In this document: positions 3,900-31,242 of the stretch, one piece after another
Position numbering within the stretch: position 1 is the first letter of the stretch
How the letters are laid out: every line of letters begins with the position of its first letter
Assembly (NCBI GenBank): GCA_039803205.1
Contig: JBDRYB010000002.1
Span: 56,880-120,879 of the forward strand
Reading direction: 5' to 3'
Source of the DNA: a candidate division WOR-3 bacterium
Lineage (GTDB): Bacteria > Hydrothermota > Hydrothermia > JBDRYB01
Length of the DNA: 64,000 nt
Program-made: the position numbers and the translations under genes
The notes under the pieces: model-generated
Database searches by the model: none
What the model was told of the DNA's origin: nothing
What the model saw: the letters and a program-made list of their open reading frames with translations, nothing else

Positions 3900-6248
3900 C
3901 TACTTGAACCACTCCTTCTTTTTCTTCTCCAGCTCCTCCTTGGCCTTTTTCTTCTGTTTCTCTGCCTCCTCTTGTGCTTTCTTCTTAGCTTTCTCGGCCT
4001 CTTCCTGGGCCTTCTTCTTTGCCTTCTCAGCTTCCTCCATTACCTTTTCCTTGCCCTTCTCCAGCTCTTTGCCCACCTCTTCCTCTATCTGCTTTCCTAC
4101 ATCTGTCCCGGTTATCTTTATCTCAGGGGAATCCATTGTCCCGCCCAGCTCAAAGTAAAATGTCGCGGCCTGCATGTTCGGAATTATGAGGTTTGAAAGC
4201 CGTGGCGAAAGCGCTTTAACCTTTGTCAGATCCACATCCAGGCTCAGATCAAGGTCAAGCTCCTTCTGGAAAGAGGCCCTGCCAACGAAAGCAAGCCCTA
4301 CATCTTCGGATGAGAATGTGAGCCTCCTGCAACTGACCCATCCGTCTTTGACCATGAAACCCGTCTCGCAAGAGCTGTAGGCGTATGAACCGAGTGAGGC
4401 TATGCCTGTAAAATCCGCCAGTTGTCTCATCAGGGCTGAACCCTGAACCCTGCCTCCGGATGACCAAACCCTTCCCTCAAGTGTTATGGTGGCCAGAGGG
4501 TCCGCGACCCGGAATTCTCCGGAGACCGAAAAAGAAGCCCTACCGGAGAGCTTAGCACCAAGAGGATCGTGCTTCTTGGAGAACTCGGATAGGTCAAATC
4601 CGGAAAGCGTTATATCCATCCTGACAAGCTGGGGCCTCGCGTGGGATATGCTGGCTCTGCCTGAGAGAGTCCCCCCGTAGAGGGAGGCCCTGAGGCCCTC
4701 GCCATACAGCCCATTTTCGTCAGAGAGAACGCTCACTTGGAGGTTCCGGATCTCCTCGCCCCTTAGCCCTACCCAGTCCGCGTGAAACTCAAGCCTGCCC
4801 CTGGGGATGATGTCCGGGGTAAAGTCCCCCGCGCCGCCTGTTCCGCCTTTTGGCAGGAGCGCGTCAAGGTCAATCCTCTGCGCCCTCACGGAGAAATATC
4901 CCTCCTTCCGGATGGGATAAGCGATGCCTGATGCGGAGAGGGAAAGGTAGGAGGAGGAGACGCTGAGATGGTTGAGCTTGGTAGAATCAGGGGTGTAGAT
5001 GATCTCTGCTTCCGCGAGGTCGATCTCCTCAGGGAGGCCCTTTGTCCTAAAGTTCTTGAGGGTAGCCGATGCCTTCACCGATGGATTTTCCGGAGTCCCG
5101 GAGGCCCTGAATGTGAACTCAGCCCTGCCGCTCACCTCCGGGAGAAAGTCCTCAAACCAGAGCGAGGCCTGACCGTTTATGAAATAGGCTATTCTGGGCA
5201 TGAAGATTACGGTCCCTTCAAGGGAGCCCTTTGTCCTGCCGGATGAAGCGGCAACATCCAGGTTGACCCTATCCCCAGCAAGACCAAGCCTAAGCCTGTA
5301 GAAATTCACTGGCTCAGGGGCCGCATCTGTTTTCACGGAAAGCCCGGAGGCATCAAGAGAACCCCAAGCCCCCGCGAGCTTCACCGAGGTATCCTTTTTC
5401 GCTAGCTCAACCCGGAGGCTGTCTATCTTTATCTCGCCTTTCAGAGACACCTGGCCGGATAATCCACCCATGTCAAGGGACTGAGCGGGGAGAATGAGGG
5501 TATAGGATGAGGAATCACCGGAAAGCCCCCTCGCAGAGAGCATAAATACGGCCCCCATTTTGTCAACCGAAACCCTTGATTCTCCTAGGGAAAGCGAGTC
5601 TCCGCCCTGATCGTAAAAACCAGAGACCTTCCACGCAAGGGGCTTGTTGACCAGGCCTGGCGCGAGAACGAGGCCAATTGCCTTGCCCTCTGATCTCAGC
5701 CTCACCTCGGTTTTCTTTGAAACCGAGGCTGAGAGGGACATGTTTATCTCAGAGAGGGCGAGGGTTGTCTCCCTTTCGGCTGATAGCAGGGTAAGTGAGC
5801 CGTTCTTGACCCTGAGGCCGCCCATCTCAAGGGCAAAGGGCAGTTCCTGCTCCTTTTCGGGTTTCCTGGAGGGCTTTGATGGCCCAGATATGAGGGTTAT
5901 CTCAGGGTTTTCAATATCTATCCCGGCAAAGGAAACCTGGCCCCAGAACAGGGGCAGGATTTTTACATTCAGGCGGGCCCTTTTTACCTTTGCCAGAGGC
6001 GGATCCCCCTCTCTTTCTCCAGCGATGAAAACGCTGTCTATATTAACGCCTATTCCCGTAAGACCTATGCCCAGGCTTGCCTTACCTATCTCAACCTTCC
6101 TGTTCAGCTCACGAGAGGCCCTCGCGGAGACCGCACGCGCGACGGTTGTGGGGTTCACGATGGCCCTGAGATAGAAGAAGCCTCCAACCAGAAGCATGAT
6201 AACCGCGCCAGCGATAACGCATATGGTTATAAGCCATTTCCTCTTCAT
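3900..6248 (-). CDS. AsmA family protein
   Basis: N-terminal TM anchor, LPLFWGQV, LDLDALLP, LYGGTLSG, GGTMDSPEI; charged repeat tail. Confidence 0.8.
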   Translation of the reverse strand: MKRKWLITICVIAGAVIMLLVGGFFYLRAIVNPTTVARAVSARASRELNRKVEIGKASLGIGLTGIGVNIDSVFIAGEREGDPPLAKVKRARLNVKILPLFWGQVSFAGIDIENPEITLISGPSKPSRKPEKEQELPFALEMGGLRVKNGSLTLLSAERETTLALSEINMSLSASVSKKTEVRLRSEGKAIGLVLAPGLVNKPLAWKVSGFYDQGGDSLSLGESRVSVDKMGAVFMLSARGLSGDSSSYTLILPAQSLDMGGLSGQVSLKGEIKIDSLRVELAKKDTSVKLAGAWGSLDASGLSVKTDAAPEPVNFYRLRLGLAGDRVNLDVAASSGRTKGSLEGTVIFMPRIAYFINGQASLWFEDFLPEVSGRAEFTFRASGTPENPSVKASATLKNFRTKGLPEEIDLAEAEIIYTPDSTKLNHLSVSSSYLSLSASGIAYPIRKEGYFSVRAQRIDLDALLPKGGTGGAGDFTPDIIPRGRLEFHADWVGLRGEEIRNLQVSVLSDENGLYGEGLRASLYGGTLSGRASISHARPQLVRMDITLSGFDLSEFSKKHDPLGAKLSGRASFSVSGEFRVADPLATITLEGRVWSSGGRVQGSALMRQLADFTGIASLGSYAYSSCETGFMVKDGWVSCRRLTFSSEDVGLAFVGRASFQKELDLDLSLDVDLTKVKALSPRLSNLIIPNMQAATFYFELGGTMDSPEIKITGTDVGKQIEEEVGKELEKGKEKVMEEAEKAKKKAQEEAEKAKKKAQEEAEKQKKKAKEELEKKKKEWFK

Positions 6249-15775: not shown

Positions 15776-17845
15776 CTACCCTTGCCTCACAACAGTGTTC
15801 CTCTCAAACTGCAAGGAATAGAGGTAATAGTAAAATCCCTTTCTTTGAATGAGCTCCTCGTGGTTTCCCTCCTCAACAAGCCTGCCGTTCTGGATTACCA
15901 AGATCTTATCCGCCTCCCTTATTGTTGATAGCCTGTGAGCGACCACAAAAGATGTCCTGCCCCGCAGGAGCTTCCTGAGGGAACGCTGAATTATCTCCTC
16001 TGTCTCCTGGTCTATGTTGGCTGTTGCCTCGTCGAGGAGGAGTATTTTCGGGTCAAAGGCCAAAGCCCTGGCAAACGCGAGGAGTTGGCGTTGACCCTGG
16101 GAGAGGGTTGACCCTCTTTCGGCCACCCTGGCTTTGTATCCGCCATCAAGGCGCTCTATGAACCTGTCCGCGTCAACTGCTTTTGCTGATTCTATGACCT
16201 TCTCAATGGGGATGTCCGATCTGAGCCTTATGTTTCCCTCTATTGTCCCAGAGAAAACGAATATGTCCTGCTGGACAAGGGCCATCCTTGACCTGAGCTC
16301 CCGAAGGGGGATGTCCCTTATGTCCGTCCCGTCTATGAGGATCCTTCCCCTCTGGGGGTCGTGGAAGCGCAGGAGAAGCTTTATTATGGTGGTCTTGCCA
16401 GCCCCGGTTGGCCCGACTATGGCGATCGTCTGACCGGGGAGGGCCTCAAAGCTTATATCCCTGAGAACCCAGTTCTCGCCCTCGTATGCGAACCAAACCC
16501 CTTCAAACCTTACTTGGCCCTTCACATCAGAGGGCATGATTTTGCCTCCGGATGGCTCTTCGGGCCCATCCATTATCTTGAATATCCTCTCGCCCGCCGC
16601 GAACGCGGATTGCATTATGTTATATTTTTCAGAGAGGTCCCTTATTGGTGCGAACAGCATCTCTATATATGAGAGAAAGGCTACGAGCGCTCCAAAGGAG
16701 AGGGCCCCCCGGATTATCTCCCCTCCGCCATACCAGAGGATTATGGCCACTGCAATTGCATCCGAAAGGTCCATTAGGGGCCTGAATGTTCCGAAAACAT
16801 AGAGCTGTTTTATGAATGCCTTGTATAGGTCGTAGTTTATCCGCCTGAACTTCTCCGTCATCCTGCCCTCCTGGACAAAAGCCTGGATCACGGATATTCC
16901 GGACACTGATTCCTGAAGGGTCGCGTTGACCTGCGCGAGGTATTTCCTTACCTCTCGGTAAGCCTCCCTCGCGTAGCGCCTGAAGAGAAAGGTTGATACA
17001 CCGAGAAGGGGAACTATTGCCATCATAGCCCCGGTGAGCCGGATGTTCATTCTGATCATTATCACTATTATCCCAATAACGAGGAGAGCGTCCTTGATGA
17101 GATACACGAGCACAGAGGAGAAGAACTCGTTTATGGATTCAACATCGTTCGTTGCCCTGGTGACGAGCCTGCCAACCGGGTTCGCGGAGAAAAACTCAAC
17201 TGGGCTCCTCAGGAACTTGCTGAAGATGTCCTGACGGAGGTCCGCCATTCCCCTCTGACTAACCTTCTGCAGGGTATAGACCTGGCCGAAGTTCAAAATC
17301 AGATTAAGCGTTAGTATGAGAAACAGAGCCAGGCCTATCCAGCCAACCCCCCTGAGGTGTCCAGCCCTAACCCTTGATATCAGGCTCCTGTCGTATTCCT
17401 TTAGCCTTGAGTAAGCGATAAAGCTCCCCTCTTTTAGGACGATCAGGTCCCCCTTTTGGAGGCTCTCTGAGAGCTCAGGTGGCACAGGGATGTATCGCTC
17501 AGAGCTGAGAAGCCCCCTTGCCTCAAGCTCGCGCCTCTGAGACTGGGGAATCTCAGGAAGGTTCACCATGAACCCGCCCTCAGGAATGGGGATAAGCCGG
17601 GCGCCGCGCAGGAGATCGGGAGGCGCGTTTTCGCTTATTATTGCCCATGAGGGCATTATGTAGCGGTCAACAGCGATCCTGGTCAAGAGAGGCGGAACAA
17701 GTTCTCCCAGTGTGAGCAATCCCATGAAAAGGAGGGACAGCAGAAGCAGGGGCCAGTATGGCTTCAGATACCTGGTGAGCCTCAGCATTAGCCTGGTGTC
17801 CATGGCCTGCGGAGCGTCGTCGGTGAAGGTGGGATGGTAGCTCAT
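15776..17845 (-). CDS. ABC exporter, fused permease/ATP-binding subunit
   Basis: TM domain, GPTGAGKTT, LSQGQRQ, LLLDEAT, AHRLST. Confidence 0.95.
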   Translation of the reverse strand: MSYHPTFTDDAPQAMDTRLMLRLTRYLKPYWPLLLLSLLFMGLLTLGELVPPLLTRIAVDRYIMPSWAIISENAPPDLLRGARLIPIPEGGFMVNLPEIPQSQRRELEARGLLSSERYIPVPPELSESLQKGDLIVLKEGSFIAYSRLKEYDRSLISRVRAGHLRGVGWIGLALFLILTLNLILNFGQVYTLQKVSQRGMADLRQDIFSKFLRSPVEFFSANPVGRLVTRATNDVESINEFFSSVLVYLIKDALLVIGIIVIMIRMNIRLTGAMMAIVPLLGVSTFLFRRYAREAYREVRKYLAQVNATLQESVSGISVIQAFVQEGRMTEKFRRINYDLYKAFIKQLYVFGTFRPLMDLSDAIAVAIILWYGGGEIIRGALSFGALVAFLSYIEMLFAPIRDLSEKYNIMQSAFAAGERIFKIMDGPEEPSGGKIMPSDVKGQVRFEGVWFAYEGENWVLRDISFEALPGQTIAIVGPTGAGKTTIIKLLLRFHDPQRGRILIDGTDIRDIPLRELRSRMALVQQDIFVFSGTIEGNIRLRSDIPIEKVIESAKAVDADRFIERLDGGYKARVAERGSTLSQGQRQLLAFARALAFDPKILLLDEATANIDQETEEIIQRSLRKLLRGRTSFVVAHRLSTIREADKILVIQNGRLVEEGNHEELIQRKGFYYYLYSLQFERNTVVRQG

Positions 17846-17859
17846 GCGAGTGCTCCTAC

Positions 17860-17888
17860 TTGATCGTTCCTGGCAAAAACACTATAAT
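17860..17888 (+). promoter_or_regulatory. Sigma70-type promoter for the RNA leader/NYN gene
   Basis: TTGATC (17860-17865)-N17-TATAAT (17883-17888). Confidence 0.65.
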
Positions 17889-17894
17889 ATAGGC

Positions 17895-17978
17895 CTGCGT
17901 TAGAAGCTTTTAGAACCGGGGGGGCAGTGTCGGCTGTGGCTTCTGCCTCAGTTTCGGCTGCCCCCGAATTTTTTCTTG
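17895..17978 (+). ncRNA. Candidate structured RNA leader/attenuator upstream of the NYN gene
   Basis: G7...C5G closing stem around CAGTGTCGGCTG-T-GGCTTCTGCC-T-CAGTTTCGGCTG, followed by a T-tract. Confidence 0.45.
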
Positions 17979-17979
17979 T

Positions 17980-18507
17980 ATGGAAAAACGGACGATTATC
18001 TTCATAGACGCCCAGGCACTTCTCAAGGGGGCATGGAAAGCATGTAAAAAAGATTTTCGTGTGAATCACTTCAATCTGATCAAGGACCTCTCCCTGAACA
18101 GGGACCTCATAAGGGTCTACATGTATGACGGCATATATCCTGAGGAAGCTATCCAATTTGCTGAGGAGAGAAGAAAAAAGCTTGCCTGGGCCAGCGAATT
18201 CTGGGGCAGGGGGATAACTGTCAAACTCATTGATATGAGAGAATCCGGGAGGGGAACATACAGACAAAAGGGTGTTGATGTGCGTATTGCCTCGGATATG
18301 CTCACCCTCGCGTTCCGAGACGCGTATGATGTTGCTGTTCTCGTTTCCGGAGACGGGGATTTCGGCGAGGTCATTGACGAGATAAAGGGCATGGGAAAGA
18401 GAGTTGAGGTGGCCTATTACAGAGAAGGTTTTTCTGAGCGGCTTAAGGAATCCGCTGATAAAATAATCTACCTCCAGGATCTGCCCAGCTTCAAGGGATG
18501 CTCCTGA
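17980..18507 (+). CDS. NYN-domain (LabA/DUF88, PIN-fold) ribonuclease
   Basis: IFIDAQ, QKGVDVRIASDM, VLVSGDGDF, GKRVEV, LKESADK. Confidence 0.93.
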   Translation: MEKRTIIFIDAQALLKGAWKACKKDFRVNHFNLIKDLSLNRDLIRVYMYDGIYPEEAIQFAEERRKKLAWASEFWGRGITVKLIDMRESGRGTYRQKGVDVRIASDMLTLAFRDAYDVAVLVSGDGDFGEVIDEIKGMGKRVEVAYYREGFSERLKESADKIIYLQDLPSFKGCS

Positions 18508-18515
18508 CCAGCAGA

Positions 18516-18875
18516 TCATACCCTCATCCTCCAGGCCGCATATAACCCTATTGCCCCGTGGGGAAGATACTCCGCCCACCACTTGCCGCAGAAAGAGGCG
18601 AATACCCCTATTACCAGCACGAAGCCCACAACCGCCACGGCCAGGATCATATGAAAGAGCCTCGGCAGTTTCGCCATCCTGAGGAATCCAACCGTGTATT
18701 TGCCGATCATGTATATCATGAATGAGACGAGGGCAAGCCCTATCCTCAGGTAGGCGAAGCTGTCATCTATCTCAAGGGGCCTCTCCCTGAAAATGGGGAA
18801 CAAGACCGGCGCCGGCAGGGCGCTCAGACCACCGAGCACGATCTTGAAGATGGTTTCAGTTTCCAATTTCGCCAT
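18516..18875 (-). CDS. Small hypothetical membrane protein (3-4 TM)
   Basis: Several hydrophobic segments; co-oriented with and overlapping the upstream gene's stop. Confidence 0.6.
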   Translation of the reverse strand: MAKLETETIFKIVLGGLSALPAPVLFPIFRERPLEIDDSFAYLRIGLALVSFMIYMIGKYTVGFLRMAKLPRLFHMILAVAVVGFVLVIGVFASFCGKWWAEYLPHGAIGLYAAWRMRV

Positions 18876-19509
18876 GGGCAAGAAGGGATTCGGGCAAGTA
18901 GAGCTCCTGAGCGGACGCGTTGAATTCGTGCTTGAGGTTCACCTTCAGGTTCTCAAGGGTGTATATCTCATAAGATACGGGAACAAAGAGGTTTTCTCCT
19001 TCTTTTTTCATTCCGAAAGCCACGAGAATATGCGGCGCATCCTTGGTGATCTTGAAGTCCTCAGAGGGGGAGAGATAGAAAACTCGTAGCCCGCCACCCC
19101 TTTCCTCTTCGGAATTAAAGGTTTTACATTCAAGATAAACCGGAATACCTTTCCATTCTAATTCAAAGTCCGGATACCCAGCGGGTTTCTTCCTTCCTGA
19201 TCTCGCAATCGGCCTCTGAGCCGGGATCTCCACAGATCTCAAGCCTTCAAGAACAAAATCCTCTATTTTATTACCAGCTTCGTTTGGTCTTTTTGTCTTT
19301 ATGCCTTCTTCTTTAGCCTTAGCGCCGGCTATCTGGATTGCTCTTTCAAGATTACTGATGAAATCTTCGGCCCAATCCATGCTTTCGTAAATCGGGAGTA
19401 TCCTGTGACCGGAGAGAACCTTGATAACAACTGTAAAAGGAATATCTCTGACAGGAGACAGAAATTTCTTCAGGGTTTCCTCCAATTGTTTAATGTATTC
19501 CTCTTGCAT
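18856..19509 (-). CDS. Putative type II restriction endonuclease (PD-(D/E)xK)
   Basis: NEAGNKIE...GYPD...VYLECKT catalytic pattern; directly downstream of an MTase. Confidence 0.78.
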   Translation of the reverse strand: MQEEYIKQLEETLKKFLSPVRDIPFTVVIKVLSGHRILPIYESMDWAEDFISNLERAIQIAGAKAKEEGIKTKRPNEAGNKIEDFVLEGLRSVEIPAQRPIARSGRKKPAGYPDFELEWKGIPVYLECKTFNSEEERGGGLRVFYLSPSEDFKITKDAPHILVAFGMKKEGENLFVPVSYEIYTLENLKVNLKHEFNASAQELYLPESLLAHGEIGN

Positions 19510-20757
19510 TTAACCCTCCTTCAAGAAAATAAGGATGTTCTCCCTTTGCATCACATTGTAAAGCCCAAAGATTATCTTGTCTATGTTTTTTATCAGTCTG
19601 AGGCCGCACTTCTCGCACTCTCTGATTACAAATTCCACGGTATTGATGAGCTTTCCCTGATAAGTCGCATTGCCTATGACCAGGCTCGCGTATTTACCCG
19701 GTTTGAGAACTCTAGCCATCTCCTTGATTGCTTCCTTCATATCCTCGTTGTAAAGTCTAACCCTCTCGTCTCCTCGGCCTCTGACACCTATAACTGATTC
19801 CCTGAATAGGGTTACATCCTTGCCGAGATACTTTAGGGCATGCGCGTCATTAGCTACATAATCCAGAGCGATGGAATAGGGGGGCGAAGTTATGATCCCG
19901 TCCACGGAATCATCCTTCAAGGGCAAGCGCCTAGCATCAACCTCGCAGATTTCAGTTTTGCCAAGCCTGATTCCAAGCTCCTGAACCACATCCTGGTAGT
20001 CCTCAACCGAAGAAAGCATCAGGGAGATGCCCTTGAGAAAGGACGGGATAAAGGGCCTTCTCCTTCTTTCCGTGTCGCTTACAGCCAGTAGGAAACCCAT
20101 CAGGTAAAAGTTGCGGACGGGTTCTTTCTCTATGTTCATTATGAAATCCAGCATGTCCTTCTCGTGGTTTCCCCTGAGTAGCCTGTTGGCCTCGGCCTGG
20201 ATATCCCGAAAGAACTCTTTTATCTCCCGAAGGAACAGAACGGATTCGGTTTTAACCCTGGTCTGGAGAACGCAAAGGGGCGATATATCAAGACATACTG
20301 AGTTTATACCCAACAACTGGGCTTCCAGGGCAAGGGTTCCGGAGCCGACAAAAGGATCGAGGACGGTTTGGCCCTCAGAGAGCCCCATTATGTTCAGAAG
20401 AGCTCTTATCATCTGGGGATGGAACTTGCCCTTGTAGGGGTATATCCAGTGAGTCAGATACTGGTTTATGGACCTGGTTCGGTTCTTACTAACGATAAAC
20501 GGATAAACGCTTTCCTTGTCCCCTATGGACTGGAAATAGGCTGTGCGCTTGCAGAAGCGTTCATCATCTCCTCCCCATGCTCTTATCCTTCTCAGGCTGT
20601 TCTCAACTAGGAACTCATAACCAAAAGCAGAGAGCTCAAGTTGCGCGAGCGCGAGCTCGTAAATGAACTGCACATTGGGCATGAGAACAGCCACAGTTCC
20701 TGTCTGAACATCAGGGGGGTTCGCCCTCTCGGAGAAATGCCAGCTCCTCATTTCCAA
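19510..20757 (-). CDS. DNA methyltransferase (probably m4C) of a type II R-M pair
   Basis: HWIYPYKGKFHPQM, VLDPFVGSGT (motif I) before ITSPPY (motif IV). Confidence 0.9.
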   Translation of the reverse strand: MEMRSWHFSERANPPDVQTGTVAVLMPNVQFIYELALAQLELSAFGYEFLVENSLRRIRAWGGDDERFCKRTAYFQSIGDKESVYPFIVSKNRTRSINQYLTHWIYPYKGKFHPQMIRALLNIMGLSEGQTVLDPFVGSGTLALEAQLLGINSVCLDISPLCVLQTRVKTESVLFLREIKEFFRDIQAEANRLLRGNHEKDMLDFIMNIEKEPVRNFYLMGFLLAVSDTERRRRPFIPSFLKGISLMLSSVEDYQDVVQELGIRLGKTEICEVDARRLPLKDDSVDGIITSPPYSIALDYVANDAHALKYLGKDVTLFRESVIGVRGRGDERVRLYNEDMKEAIKEMARVLKPGKYASLVIGNATYQGKLINTVEFVIRECEKCGLRLIKNIDKIIFGLYNVMQRENILIFLKEG

Positions 20758-31131: not shown

Positions 31132-31169
31132 GTGCGCATGGGCTCGCTTTTGGTTTATAATTTCAGTCC

Positions 31170-31242
31170 GGGCCGTTAGCTCAGGCGGTAGAGCACCGGA
31201 TTTTTAATCCGGGTGCCGAAGGTTCAACTCCTTCACGGCCCA
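31170..31242 (+). tRNA. tRNA-Lys (anticodon UUU), CCA not encoded
   Basis: Acceptor GGGCCGT/ACGGCCC, D arm GCTC/GAGC, anticodon arm CCGGA-TTTTTAA-TCCGG, T arm GAAGG-TTCAACT-CCTTC; TATAAT 8 nt upstream. Confidence 0.96.

Follow-up and report, generated by a model that had tools for sequence, protein, structure and literature searches.

We analysed a stretch of 64,000 nucleotides (nt) from a candidate division WOR-3 bacterium (assembly GCA_039803205.1, contig JBDRYB010000002.1, positions 56,880 to 120,879 of the forward strand), referred to here as the window, and within it a gene for a predicted NYN-type ribonuclease (RNase) that is preceded by its own promoter and by a leader RNA with one long hairpin. 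In our assessment the chances are about even that this hairpin is a cis-acting, terminator-type attenuator that keeps both a potentially harmful nuclease and antisense transcription low. The locus is more interesting than a plain terminator would be, on account of its behaviour as a cassette and of a frame-preserving antisense insertion that recurs in a second lineage.

The leader hairpin and its promoter

Direct reading of the window sequence located the promoter, all of the leader elements and the ATG where the initial annotation had placed them, including a long leader lacking a Shine-Dalgarno (SD) sequence, which comes to ~83 nt. The transcription start was taken from promoter spacing in leaderless genes of the same genome. 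The features of the locus are as follows.

17860..17888, plus strand: sigma-70-type promoter TTGATC-17-TATAAT, from the sequence and a promoter scan
17897..17979, plus strand: predicted 5′ leader of ~83 nt without SD sequence, its start placed 8-9 nt past the -10 box
17918-24, plus strand: G7 of the leader
17920..17965, plus strand: long imperfect hairpin whose stem of 9, 5 and 3 bp is interrupted first by a 3x3 internal loop and then by a 1x1 mismatch, and is capped by a UUCU loop
17925-36, plus strand: leader 12-mer CAGTGTCGGCTG
17938-47, plus strand: leader element GGC-TTCT-GCC
17949-60, plus strand: leader 12-mer CAGTTTCGGCTG
17961-66, plus strand: C5G of the leader
17966..17977, plus strand: tail GAAUUUUUUCUU with the U-tract (U6CUU), which begins 3 nt past the stem (GAA spacer)
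17967-77, plus strand: leader element AATTTTTTCTT
17980..18507, plus strand: NYN gene (LabA/COG1432-type, PF01936), 175 aa, Pfam E 1.6e-21

The initial annotation had proposed a multi-hairpin RNA folding as a four-way junction or, alternatively, as one long stem plus U-tract resembling a terminator, and it is the latter that is favoured. Folding of positions 17915-17975 with ViennaRNA gave a single hairpin with a minimum free energy of -33 kcal/mol (z -4.3), equalled by 1 of 200 shuffled sequences, and this hairpin retains -15.9 and -10.9 kcal/mol at 70 and 80 °C, respectively; the public runs containing DNA of the window are labelled as hot-spring metagenomes. The four-way junction is 13.3 kcal/mol worse at 37 °C (-19.7 vs -33.0) and reaches +0.3 vs -10.9 kcal/mol at 80 °C, values on which both the junction and an arrangement of three small hairpins were rejected. 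The two 12-mers are 11/12 identical, and they are direct repeats, as initially described, only because each is self-complementary at its ends and one lies in each arm of the palindrome. No sequence variants were found within the hairpin in contigs assembled from the DNA runs.

Among hairpins followed by a T-tract, this one is the strongest on both strands of the window (-31.4, vs -23.4 for the runner-up), and among 516 candidates in the 2.3-Mb genome it takes 6th place. A leader hairpin with a T-tract at -18 kcal/mol or below, without a same-strand gene upstream, was found at just 3 other genes of ~1963 by rough gene calling, all of them at -20.9 or weaker. The U-tract is present on the NYN strand only, with none on the opposite strand, and ~23 nt separate the predicted transcription start from the hairpin. 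The leader is single-copy, with no copies elsewhere in the genome; positions 17846-17979 gave no Rfam 15 match at E values up to 10, and Tandem Repeats Finder (TRF; minimum score 30) reported no tandem repeat array in 17500-18600. Three further pairings were considered and dropped. The leader ensemble holds no competing antiterminator fold, and a 5′ antiterminator was set aside on that absence of competition and on a basal 9-bp stem that would persist. Pairing of the 3′ arm and U-tract with the NYN open reading frame (ORF) gave a duplex of -22.4 kcal/mol, an energy that 422 of 1000 shuffled ORFs and 69 of 239 chunks of real sequence also reached, and an 8-nt match of the leader 5′ end to the coding region of the adjacent ABC transporter gene is at chance level (an estimated ~4 such 8-mer repeats are expected in 760 nt).

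A scan for consensus promoters in 6 kb was not above chance (5 sites vs 4.6 expected). The NYN promoter is credible on other sequence grounds: TATAAT boxes recur 7-9 nt before start codons within the window, a leaderless gene elsewhere in the same genome (G000:C10) has the similar promoter TTGACA-17-TAGAAT-ATAGGCCT-ATG, and the block 17872-17903, which includes the -10 box, is 32/32 identical in the congener G002. The NYN ATG at 17980 has no GGAG-type motif upstream and lies 14 nt behind the hairpin. Leaderless mRNAs had been taken as the norm in this DNA, and leaderless-type TANNNT motifs do lie just upstream of 11 of the 52 ORFs of at least 180 aa, but SD-like motifs precede 21 of the 52. 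The organism thus uses both leaderless and SD-led mRNAs, and an SD-less leader of ~83 nt blocked by a hairpin is unusual by its standards.

Promoter-like boxes elsewhere in the window take several forms. TATAAT lies 7-9 nt before the starts at 6248(-), 32628(+), 42974(+), 56308(+) and 61247(+), implying leaderless mRNAs; tRNA-Lys (31170-31242) is preceded by TATAAT at 31155-31160; and at other genes, for example 9323-, 45339- and 23557-, TATAAT is followed by a leader of ~30 nt with GGAGG.

The list of the genome's strongest terminator-like sites is dominated by a multi-copy hairpin family of ~45-50 nt, GGGCCGGCC...GCACCTCCCG...GGCCGGCCC, which occurs outside the window. Its loop reads GGAGGTGC on the other strand, which is SD-like, and T-rich tails often follow. 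Copies include C1:247280-247328, C5:43985-44035, C3:62922-62968, C3:66152-66198, C16:40831-40883, C14:46899-46947, C4:119800-119847 and C38:4060-4104. The family could be a repeat of the repetitive extragenic palindromic (REP) or miniature inverted-repeat transposable element (MITE) kind, or a conserved type of terminator.

The cassette, its alleles and the host-strand frame

Promoter, leader and NYN gene make up a cassette at window positions 17846-18512 (to 18519 with the repeat), 667-674 bp in length. It is set between genes of the opposite strand, the ABC transporter gene lying to the left of NYN and divergent from it, with the following features.

15776..17845, minus strand: ABC transporter gene, 689 aa (Pfam ABC_membrane 3.9e-50, ABC_tran 1.9e-31), a host gene lying downstream of the cassette when read along the minus strand
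17839..17845: 7-nt repeat at the cassette boundary, left copy, AGCTCAT on the plus strand and ATGAGCT on the host strand
17842..18519, minus strand: bridging ORF of 225 codons, running antisense along the full cassette, with no Pfam family
17845-17843, minus strand: ATG start codon of the ABC gene, overlapping the TGA of the bridging frame
17853..17857, minus strand: SD site of the ABC gene, AGGAG, carried by the cassette
18513..18519: 7-nt repeat, right copy, AGATCAT on the plus strand and ATGATCT on the host strand, containing the ATGA overlap between the 121-aa stop and the bridging start
18516..18881, minus strand: host gene of 121 aa, family unknown (no Pfam family), upstream of the cassette on the minus strand
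18856-19509, minus strand: type II restriction endonuclease (REase; PADLOC REase_II 1.6e-31)
19510-20757, minus strand: DNA methyltransferase (MTase; PADLOC MTase_II 9e-29; Pfam N6_N4_Mtase)

The locus was compared by DNA search with two congeneric genomes, G001 (86% complete) and G002 (98% complete). G001 has the empty site, which reads ...CTATGAGCTACC... with one repeat copy and with 17846-18512 wholly absent; it keeps the ABC, 121-aa, REase and MTase genes at 78% identity. There the 121-aa stop and the ABC start overlap directly as ATGA, and the ABC gene uses another SD, GGAGGA, located inside the 121-aa gene. The direct repeat flanking the cassette in the window is imperfect (6/7). In G002 the leader and the last ~60 nt of NYN are kept, codons ~2-156 are missing, and the start codon is changed from ATG to ACG. 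The G002 hairpin is shortened and weakened (-17.7 kcal/mol, 25/49 columns identical), and its U-tract is degraded, reading GAAUCUUCUCUC. In this allele the hairpin and U-tract have decayed with the promoter block intact, a contrast that ties the hairpin to NYN. Leader and NYN are inherited as one unit. A minus-strand terminator in the NYN 3′ end was considered as the cause of retention in G002 and dropped, its folds being ambiguous.

The identical promoter block raises a further point. The -10 region within the 32 nt is nearly palindromic (TATAATATA), the flanks of the block are ~76-80% identical in G002, and the block may double as a promoter facing outward, with TATATT or TATTAT as its minus-strand box, that serves the ABC gene, a gene cut off from its operon by the insertion.

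No terminal inverted repeats were found in the cassette, and no DNA match to it was found among plasmids and phages. No NYN protein above 49% identity was found in the class (64 genomes), a metagenome scan gave one 91%-identical contig, L120, which begins inside NYN, and viral contigs contained only relatives at 36% identity or less. The 121-aa gene is present in G001, G002 and L120.

The host strand is open across the insertion. The ATG of the bridging ORF overlaps the stop of the 121-aa gene (ATGA) and its TGA overlaps the ABC ATG, and the minus-strand frame through the whole cassette runs 921 nt without a stop; the three antisense registers contain 0, 16 and 8 stops. The NYN gene is without TTA, CTA and TCA codons, the antisense equivalents of stops, which account for 2.3% of all codons in long ORFs of the genome; 175-codon windows free of them are found in 112 of 2948 cases in those ORFs. 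Shuffled leaders stay open in the host-strand frame in 544 of 5000 trials, and the hairpin read in this frame gives GAAETEAEATADTAPP. The same frame is open through the G002 remnant and, in L120, from the ATGA overlap over the 67 codons covered. Across 90 NYN loci, 9 lack antisense stops, and 7 of these 9 come from genomes with a GC content of at least 0.54; the two at GC ~0.5 are the present cassette and that of G053.

G053, from the same class and another family, carries an NYN gene 42% identical to the present one, preceded by TTGACT-17-TATAAT, a two-hairpin leader and an SD; the second hairpin, CCCCCCG...CGGGGGG, is followed by UUUUCUUUU. The unit (L008/L123, G053:C239, 1049-1816) lies antisense, in frame and stop-free within a solute-binding-protein gene, where the insert of ~250 codons occupies a variable loop of a host ORF of 937 aa, flanked by the N- and C-terminal parts of SBP_bac_1. 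In G007 and G018 the solute-binding-protein gene is uninterrupted. A remnant is found in G045 (L124, G045:C51, 1540-1850), in which the NYN body is gone, the last ~36 nt are kept and the solute-binding-protein frame is open. G045 keeps the promoter (TTGACG-17-TATAAT), hairpin 1 with 8/8 pairs unchanged, and hairpin 2, in which a double change has turned C-G into U-A and of which another copy, followed by U6, is present; TRF found no tandem repeat array in G045. Outside the NYN core we detected no DNA similarity between the G000 (window) and G053 cassettes. By sequence comparison, then, two unrelated insertions each show empty, full and nuclease-deleted states, and host translation appears to be preserved in all four insert-bearing alleles.

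To the right of NYN, the minus strand carries in order the 121-aa gene, REase, MTase and two ORFs that read by eye as M16-type peptidases. A restriction-modification (R-M) pair beside NYN is thus confirmed by PADLOC and Pfam, but linkage of NYN to the pair is not supported by the comparison, in which G001 has R-M without NYN and G002 has an NYN remnant with a 179-nt MTase fragment and no REase found by that DNA search. NYN is therefore not a fixed partner of the R-M pair. The pair itself (18856-20757) is variable in the genus, being intact in G001:C331 (78% identity) and left as the MTase fragment in G002:C14, and the stretch from the M16-type ORFs to the ABC gene forms a minor hotspot where genes are gained and lost.

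The NYN protein matches PF01936 over residues 4-165 with 77.8 bits against a gathering cut-off of 24.2, and a Pfam scan at E up to 0.01 returned PF01936 alone and no ToxN, CptN or TenpN family. Against PADLOC it matched partial NYN-type models only, with HEC-09 matched just in the C-terminal half. In an alignment of 24 sequences, the acidic residues D10, D100, D125 and D127 are invariant or nearly so, in keeping with the rule of four acidic metal-binding residues in NYN proteins given in the relevant part of Matelska 2017 (PMC5499597), which also describes bacterial PF01936 NYN proteins as numerous and of largely unknown function.

Proposed attenuation and competing roles for the hairpin

Were the hairpin an attenuator, transcription from the cassette promoter would mostly end after ~80 nt, NYN would be made from the read-through fraction only, and its translation too would be poor from an SD-less AUG 14 nt behind the hairpin. 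Early termination would also limit antisense transcription into the host genes, which would be spared because the cassette faces the host operon, and ribosomes could cross the insert into the ABC gene through the stop-free frame and the restored ATGA overlaps. We infer three things: the hairpin terminates transcription, NYN does harm once de-repressed, and ribosomes translate the bridging frame. The attenuator is favoured on the strength and strand asymmetry of the hairpin, the missing SD, the analogous leaders of sporadic cassettes and the decay of the hairpin in G002. A metatranscriptome contig of 237 nt spans 17931-18167, from the interior of the hairpin across the U-tract into NYN, and hints weakly at partial read-through.

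Hairpin leaders were surveyed across NYN loci, 80 from GTDB genomes and 10 from relatives, with L112 dropped from the uniform scan for want of a start codon. An earlier scan had found a hairpin in 7/90 loci on the gene strand vs 4/90 on the opposite strand, 4 of them within 60 nt of the start. The uniform scan was noisy: it missed L008, L064 and L085, which were seen by eye, and took in the 3′ half of a tRNA (L094). Comparable leaders were recognized by eye at L091 (Phycisphaerae), L064 (Brocadiales) and L085 (Methanolinea), and in the leaders of G053, G045 and L091 the final hairpin runs straight into its U-tract. The resident homologues most similar to the present NYN (47-49% identity, 5/5 genomes from a single family) carry a promoter with a short SD-bearing leader and adjoin HU and phosphoesterase genes; another NYN group follows a gene with an S1 domain like that of polynucleotide phosphorylase (PNPase). 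A hairpin leader is thus not a family-wide trait of NYN genes, and the conserved RNA upstream of NYN homologues that the initial annotation had envisaged is not borne out. A narrow literature search found no RNA motif in print upstream of NYN genes. Two archaeal NYN loci, L066 (uncultured archaeon, ~31-90 nt upstream) and L118 (Parvarchaeota, ~80-108 nt upstream), share a similar hairpin, CCC(C/T)GCC(T/A)TTGCTTCGGCAACGGC(G/A)GG, with a UUCG loop.

Several observations weigh against attenuation. The U-tract is offset by 3 nt from the stem, and a gap of 3 nt between stem and U-tract weakens termination in the E. coli model. The RNA-library contig that crosses the hairpin has a depth of 2.3, shows 2 differences relative to the window, gives neither strand nor ends and is possibly DNA carry-over. 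In the uniform scan, a leader hairpin with a T-tract and without a same-strand gene upstream preceded 6/89 NYN genes vs 4/157 other genes (Fisher p 0.18), and the hairpin is absent in the 5 closest resident homologues and the 3 PNPase-linked ones. G002 is the hairpin's single informative close relative, the 78%-identical protein P0002 being unplaced on DNA and L120 starting inside NYN. The promoter, hairpins and U-tract of G045 are intact without NYN, which suits an RNA that has its own function no less well than a purely cis-acting attenuator. The toxicity of NYN is assumed, and in the tests reported in the relevant part of Payne et al. 2024, the PADLOC NYN candidate HEC-09 gave no phage defence.

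The offset U-tract also bears on a different role, in which the hairpin acts chiefly at the 5′ end of the mRNA, by stabilising it, by blocking translation or as a site of processing that yields, for example, a leaderless NYN mRNA, and is no efficient terminator. The RNA-library contig continuing into NYN suits this role, as does the organism's use of leaderless mRNAs, by which a processed transcript beginning at 5′-AUG would be translatable and a long SD-less leader would not. The element is, however, among the genome's best terminator-like sites, and the hairpins of G053, G045 and L091 have their U-tracts directly adjacent; we regard this 5′-end role as unlikely. Those same leaders, placed before NYN in three other settings, speak against a palindrome without RNA function, whether a relic or site of insertion or recombination or simply part of the bridging ORF. 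Such a palindrome would fit a cassette that is an indel with 7-nt end repeats and a hairpin that lies within an open host-strand frame, as GAAETEAEATADTAPP, but the hairpin sits 75 nt inside the cassette and off its boundary, the U-tract is confined to the NYN strand, and neither terminal inverted repeats nor copies elsewhere were found, so that this explanation is improbable.

What survives of the nuclease-deleted alleles bears on two roles in trans. In one, an ~80-nt terminated RNA would bind and inhibit NYN as in toxin-antitoxin (TA) systems of type III, with the terminator setting an excess of RNA over nuclease. The order of promoter, terminator and nuclease gene is the type III layout as set out in part of Blower 2012 (PMC3401426); the nuclease was deleted and the promoter and hairpin RNA kept in two independent lineages, G002 and G045, toxin-first loss being the order of decay expected of an addictive pair; and G045 has two tandem C6/G6 hairpins with a compensatory C-G to U-A change. 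Yet toxin-first loss is equally expected for a cis attenuator of a harmful gene, and the G002 hairpin is decaying. TRF found no tandem array in G000 or G045, the RNA in front of the hairpin is just ~23 nt long, the protein is NYN/PIN-like and not ToxN, CptN or TenpN, and complementarity between leader and ORF is at chance (422/1000 shuffles). An RNA partner is quite unlikely in our estimate, and the nuclease-first decay in two lineages together with the intact G045 RNA would keep an RNA-antitoxin role as a minority reading. In the other, the leader would be an independent small RNA gene, composed of promoter, 5′ seed and terminator hairpin, with its own target, and NYN would lie downstream incidentally. 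Here the 32/32 block in the NYN-less G002 takes in the first ~7 transcribed nt, and G045, also without NYN, has its promoter, hairpins and U-tract intact. The leader is single-copy and occurs only with the NYN cassette, however, G001 lacking both; the body of the RNA is strongly diverged in G002, the sole seed match noted, of 8 nt to the ABC mRNA, is no better than chance, and the conserved block may be the outward ABC promoter or reflect promoter constraint. We give an independent small RNA a slim chance.

Attenuation in cis, the reading that we prefer, could also be one part of a wider arrangement. We consider it rather doubtful, and still worth setting out, that the cassette is an undescribed kind of stealth selfish or defence gene, combining a promoter, a terminator leader, a nuclease free of antisense stops and a backwards, frame-preserving insertion. 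The leader RNA would then restrain the nuclease in cis and perhaps, as an antitoxin, in trans; the nuclease might promote retention or spread of the cassette; host translation would be kept by ATGA-coupled bridging ORFs or by in-frame insertions in loops; and the nuclease would be lost first, with orphan leader RNAs remaining. The locus, which has the look of a selfish or defence gene under tight restraint, is a concrete, testable case of an NYN gene that seems closely held down, with a strong 5′ terminator hairpin, no ribosome-binding site and convergent host transcription, and of a presence/absence cassette from which the nuclease is lost first. The stop-free host strand across a gene inserted backwards may be a new design feature and, if general, would give selfish or defence genes a new route into operons and coding sequences without polar damage. 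In genome annotation, such cassettes may be signalled by long ORFs antisense to NYN genes and by odd insertions within solute-binding proteins.

Relation to known systems

The nuclease resembles LabA/COG1432-type NYN proteins, with a domain match well above the Pfam threshold and conserved acidic residues. It differs from resident homologues of the same class in that these occur in stable contexts with ordinary SD leaders, whereas this copy belongs to a sporadic cassette.

The leader shares with intrinsic-terminator attenuators a GC-rich stem-loop and U-tract between promoter and first codon, with a clear strand asymmetry. It differs from them in that no antiterminator fold, leader peptide or ligand aptamer was detected here, in the 3-nt offset of the U-tract, and in the unusual length of its stem, which has 17 bp and two internal loops. 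A comparison can also be drawn with the free-standing genes for homing endonucleases in phages, small nuclease genes between or within host genes that are present or absent among relatives and are repressed by 5′ hairpins. NYN differs in being a predicted RNase rather than a DNA endonuclease, and in its chromosomal rather than phage setting.

The initial annotation had likened the locus to a type III TA system. The likeness holds for the layout, a constitutive-type promoter and a palindromic, terminator-type hairpin directly before an endoribonuclease gene as in toxIN, cptIN and tenpIN, but membership does not follow: judged by the type III features set out in part of Blower 2012 (PMC3401426), the locus has no tandem array of ~34-36-nt repeats, and its nuclease has an NYN/PIN-like fold and not that of the ToxN, CptN or TenpN families. 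In the same account, the terminator of type III systems is expected to yield much more of the short RNA than of the nuclease mRNA.

The open host strand has a parallel in Rickettsia palindromic elements and intragenic MITEs, inserts that keep the host frame open and thereby leave the host gene or operon functional, as described in part of PMC10969869. The present inserts differ in their size of 670-750 bp, in carrying a complete nuclease gene on the opposite strand with its own promoter and leader, and in that neither terminal inverted repeats nor multiple copies were found. An open host-strand frame like that of the Rickettsia elements is found in G000, G002, G053 and G045 and, in part, in L120.

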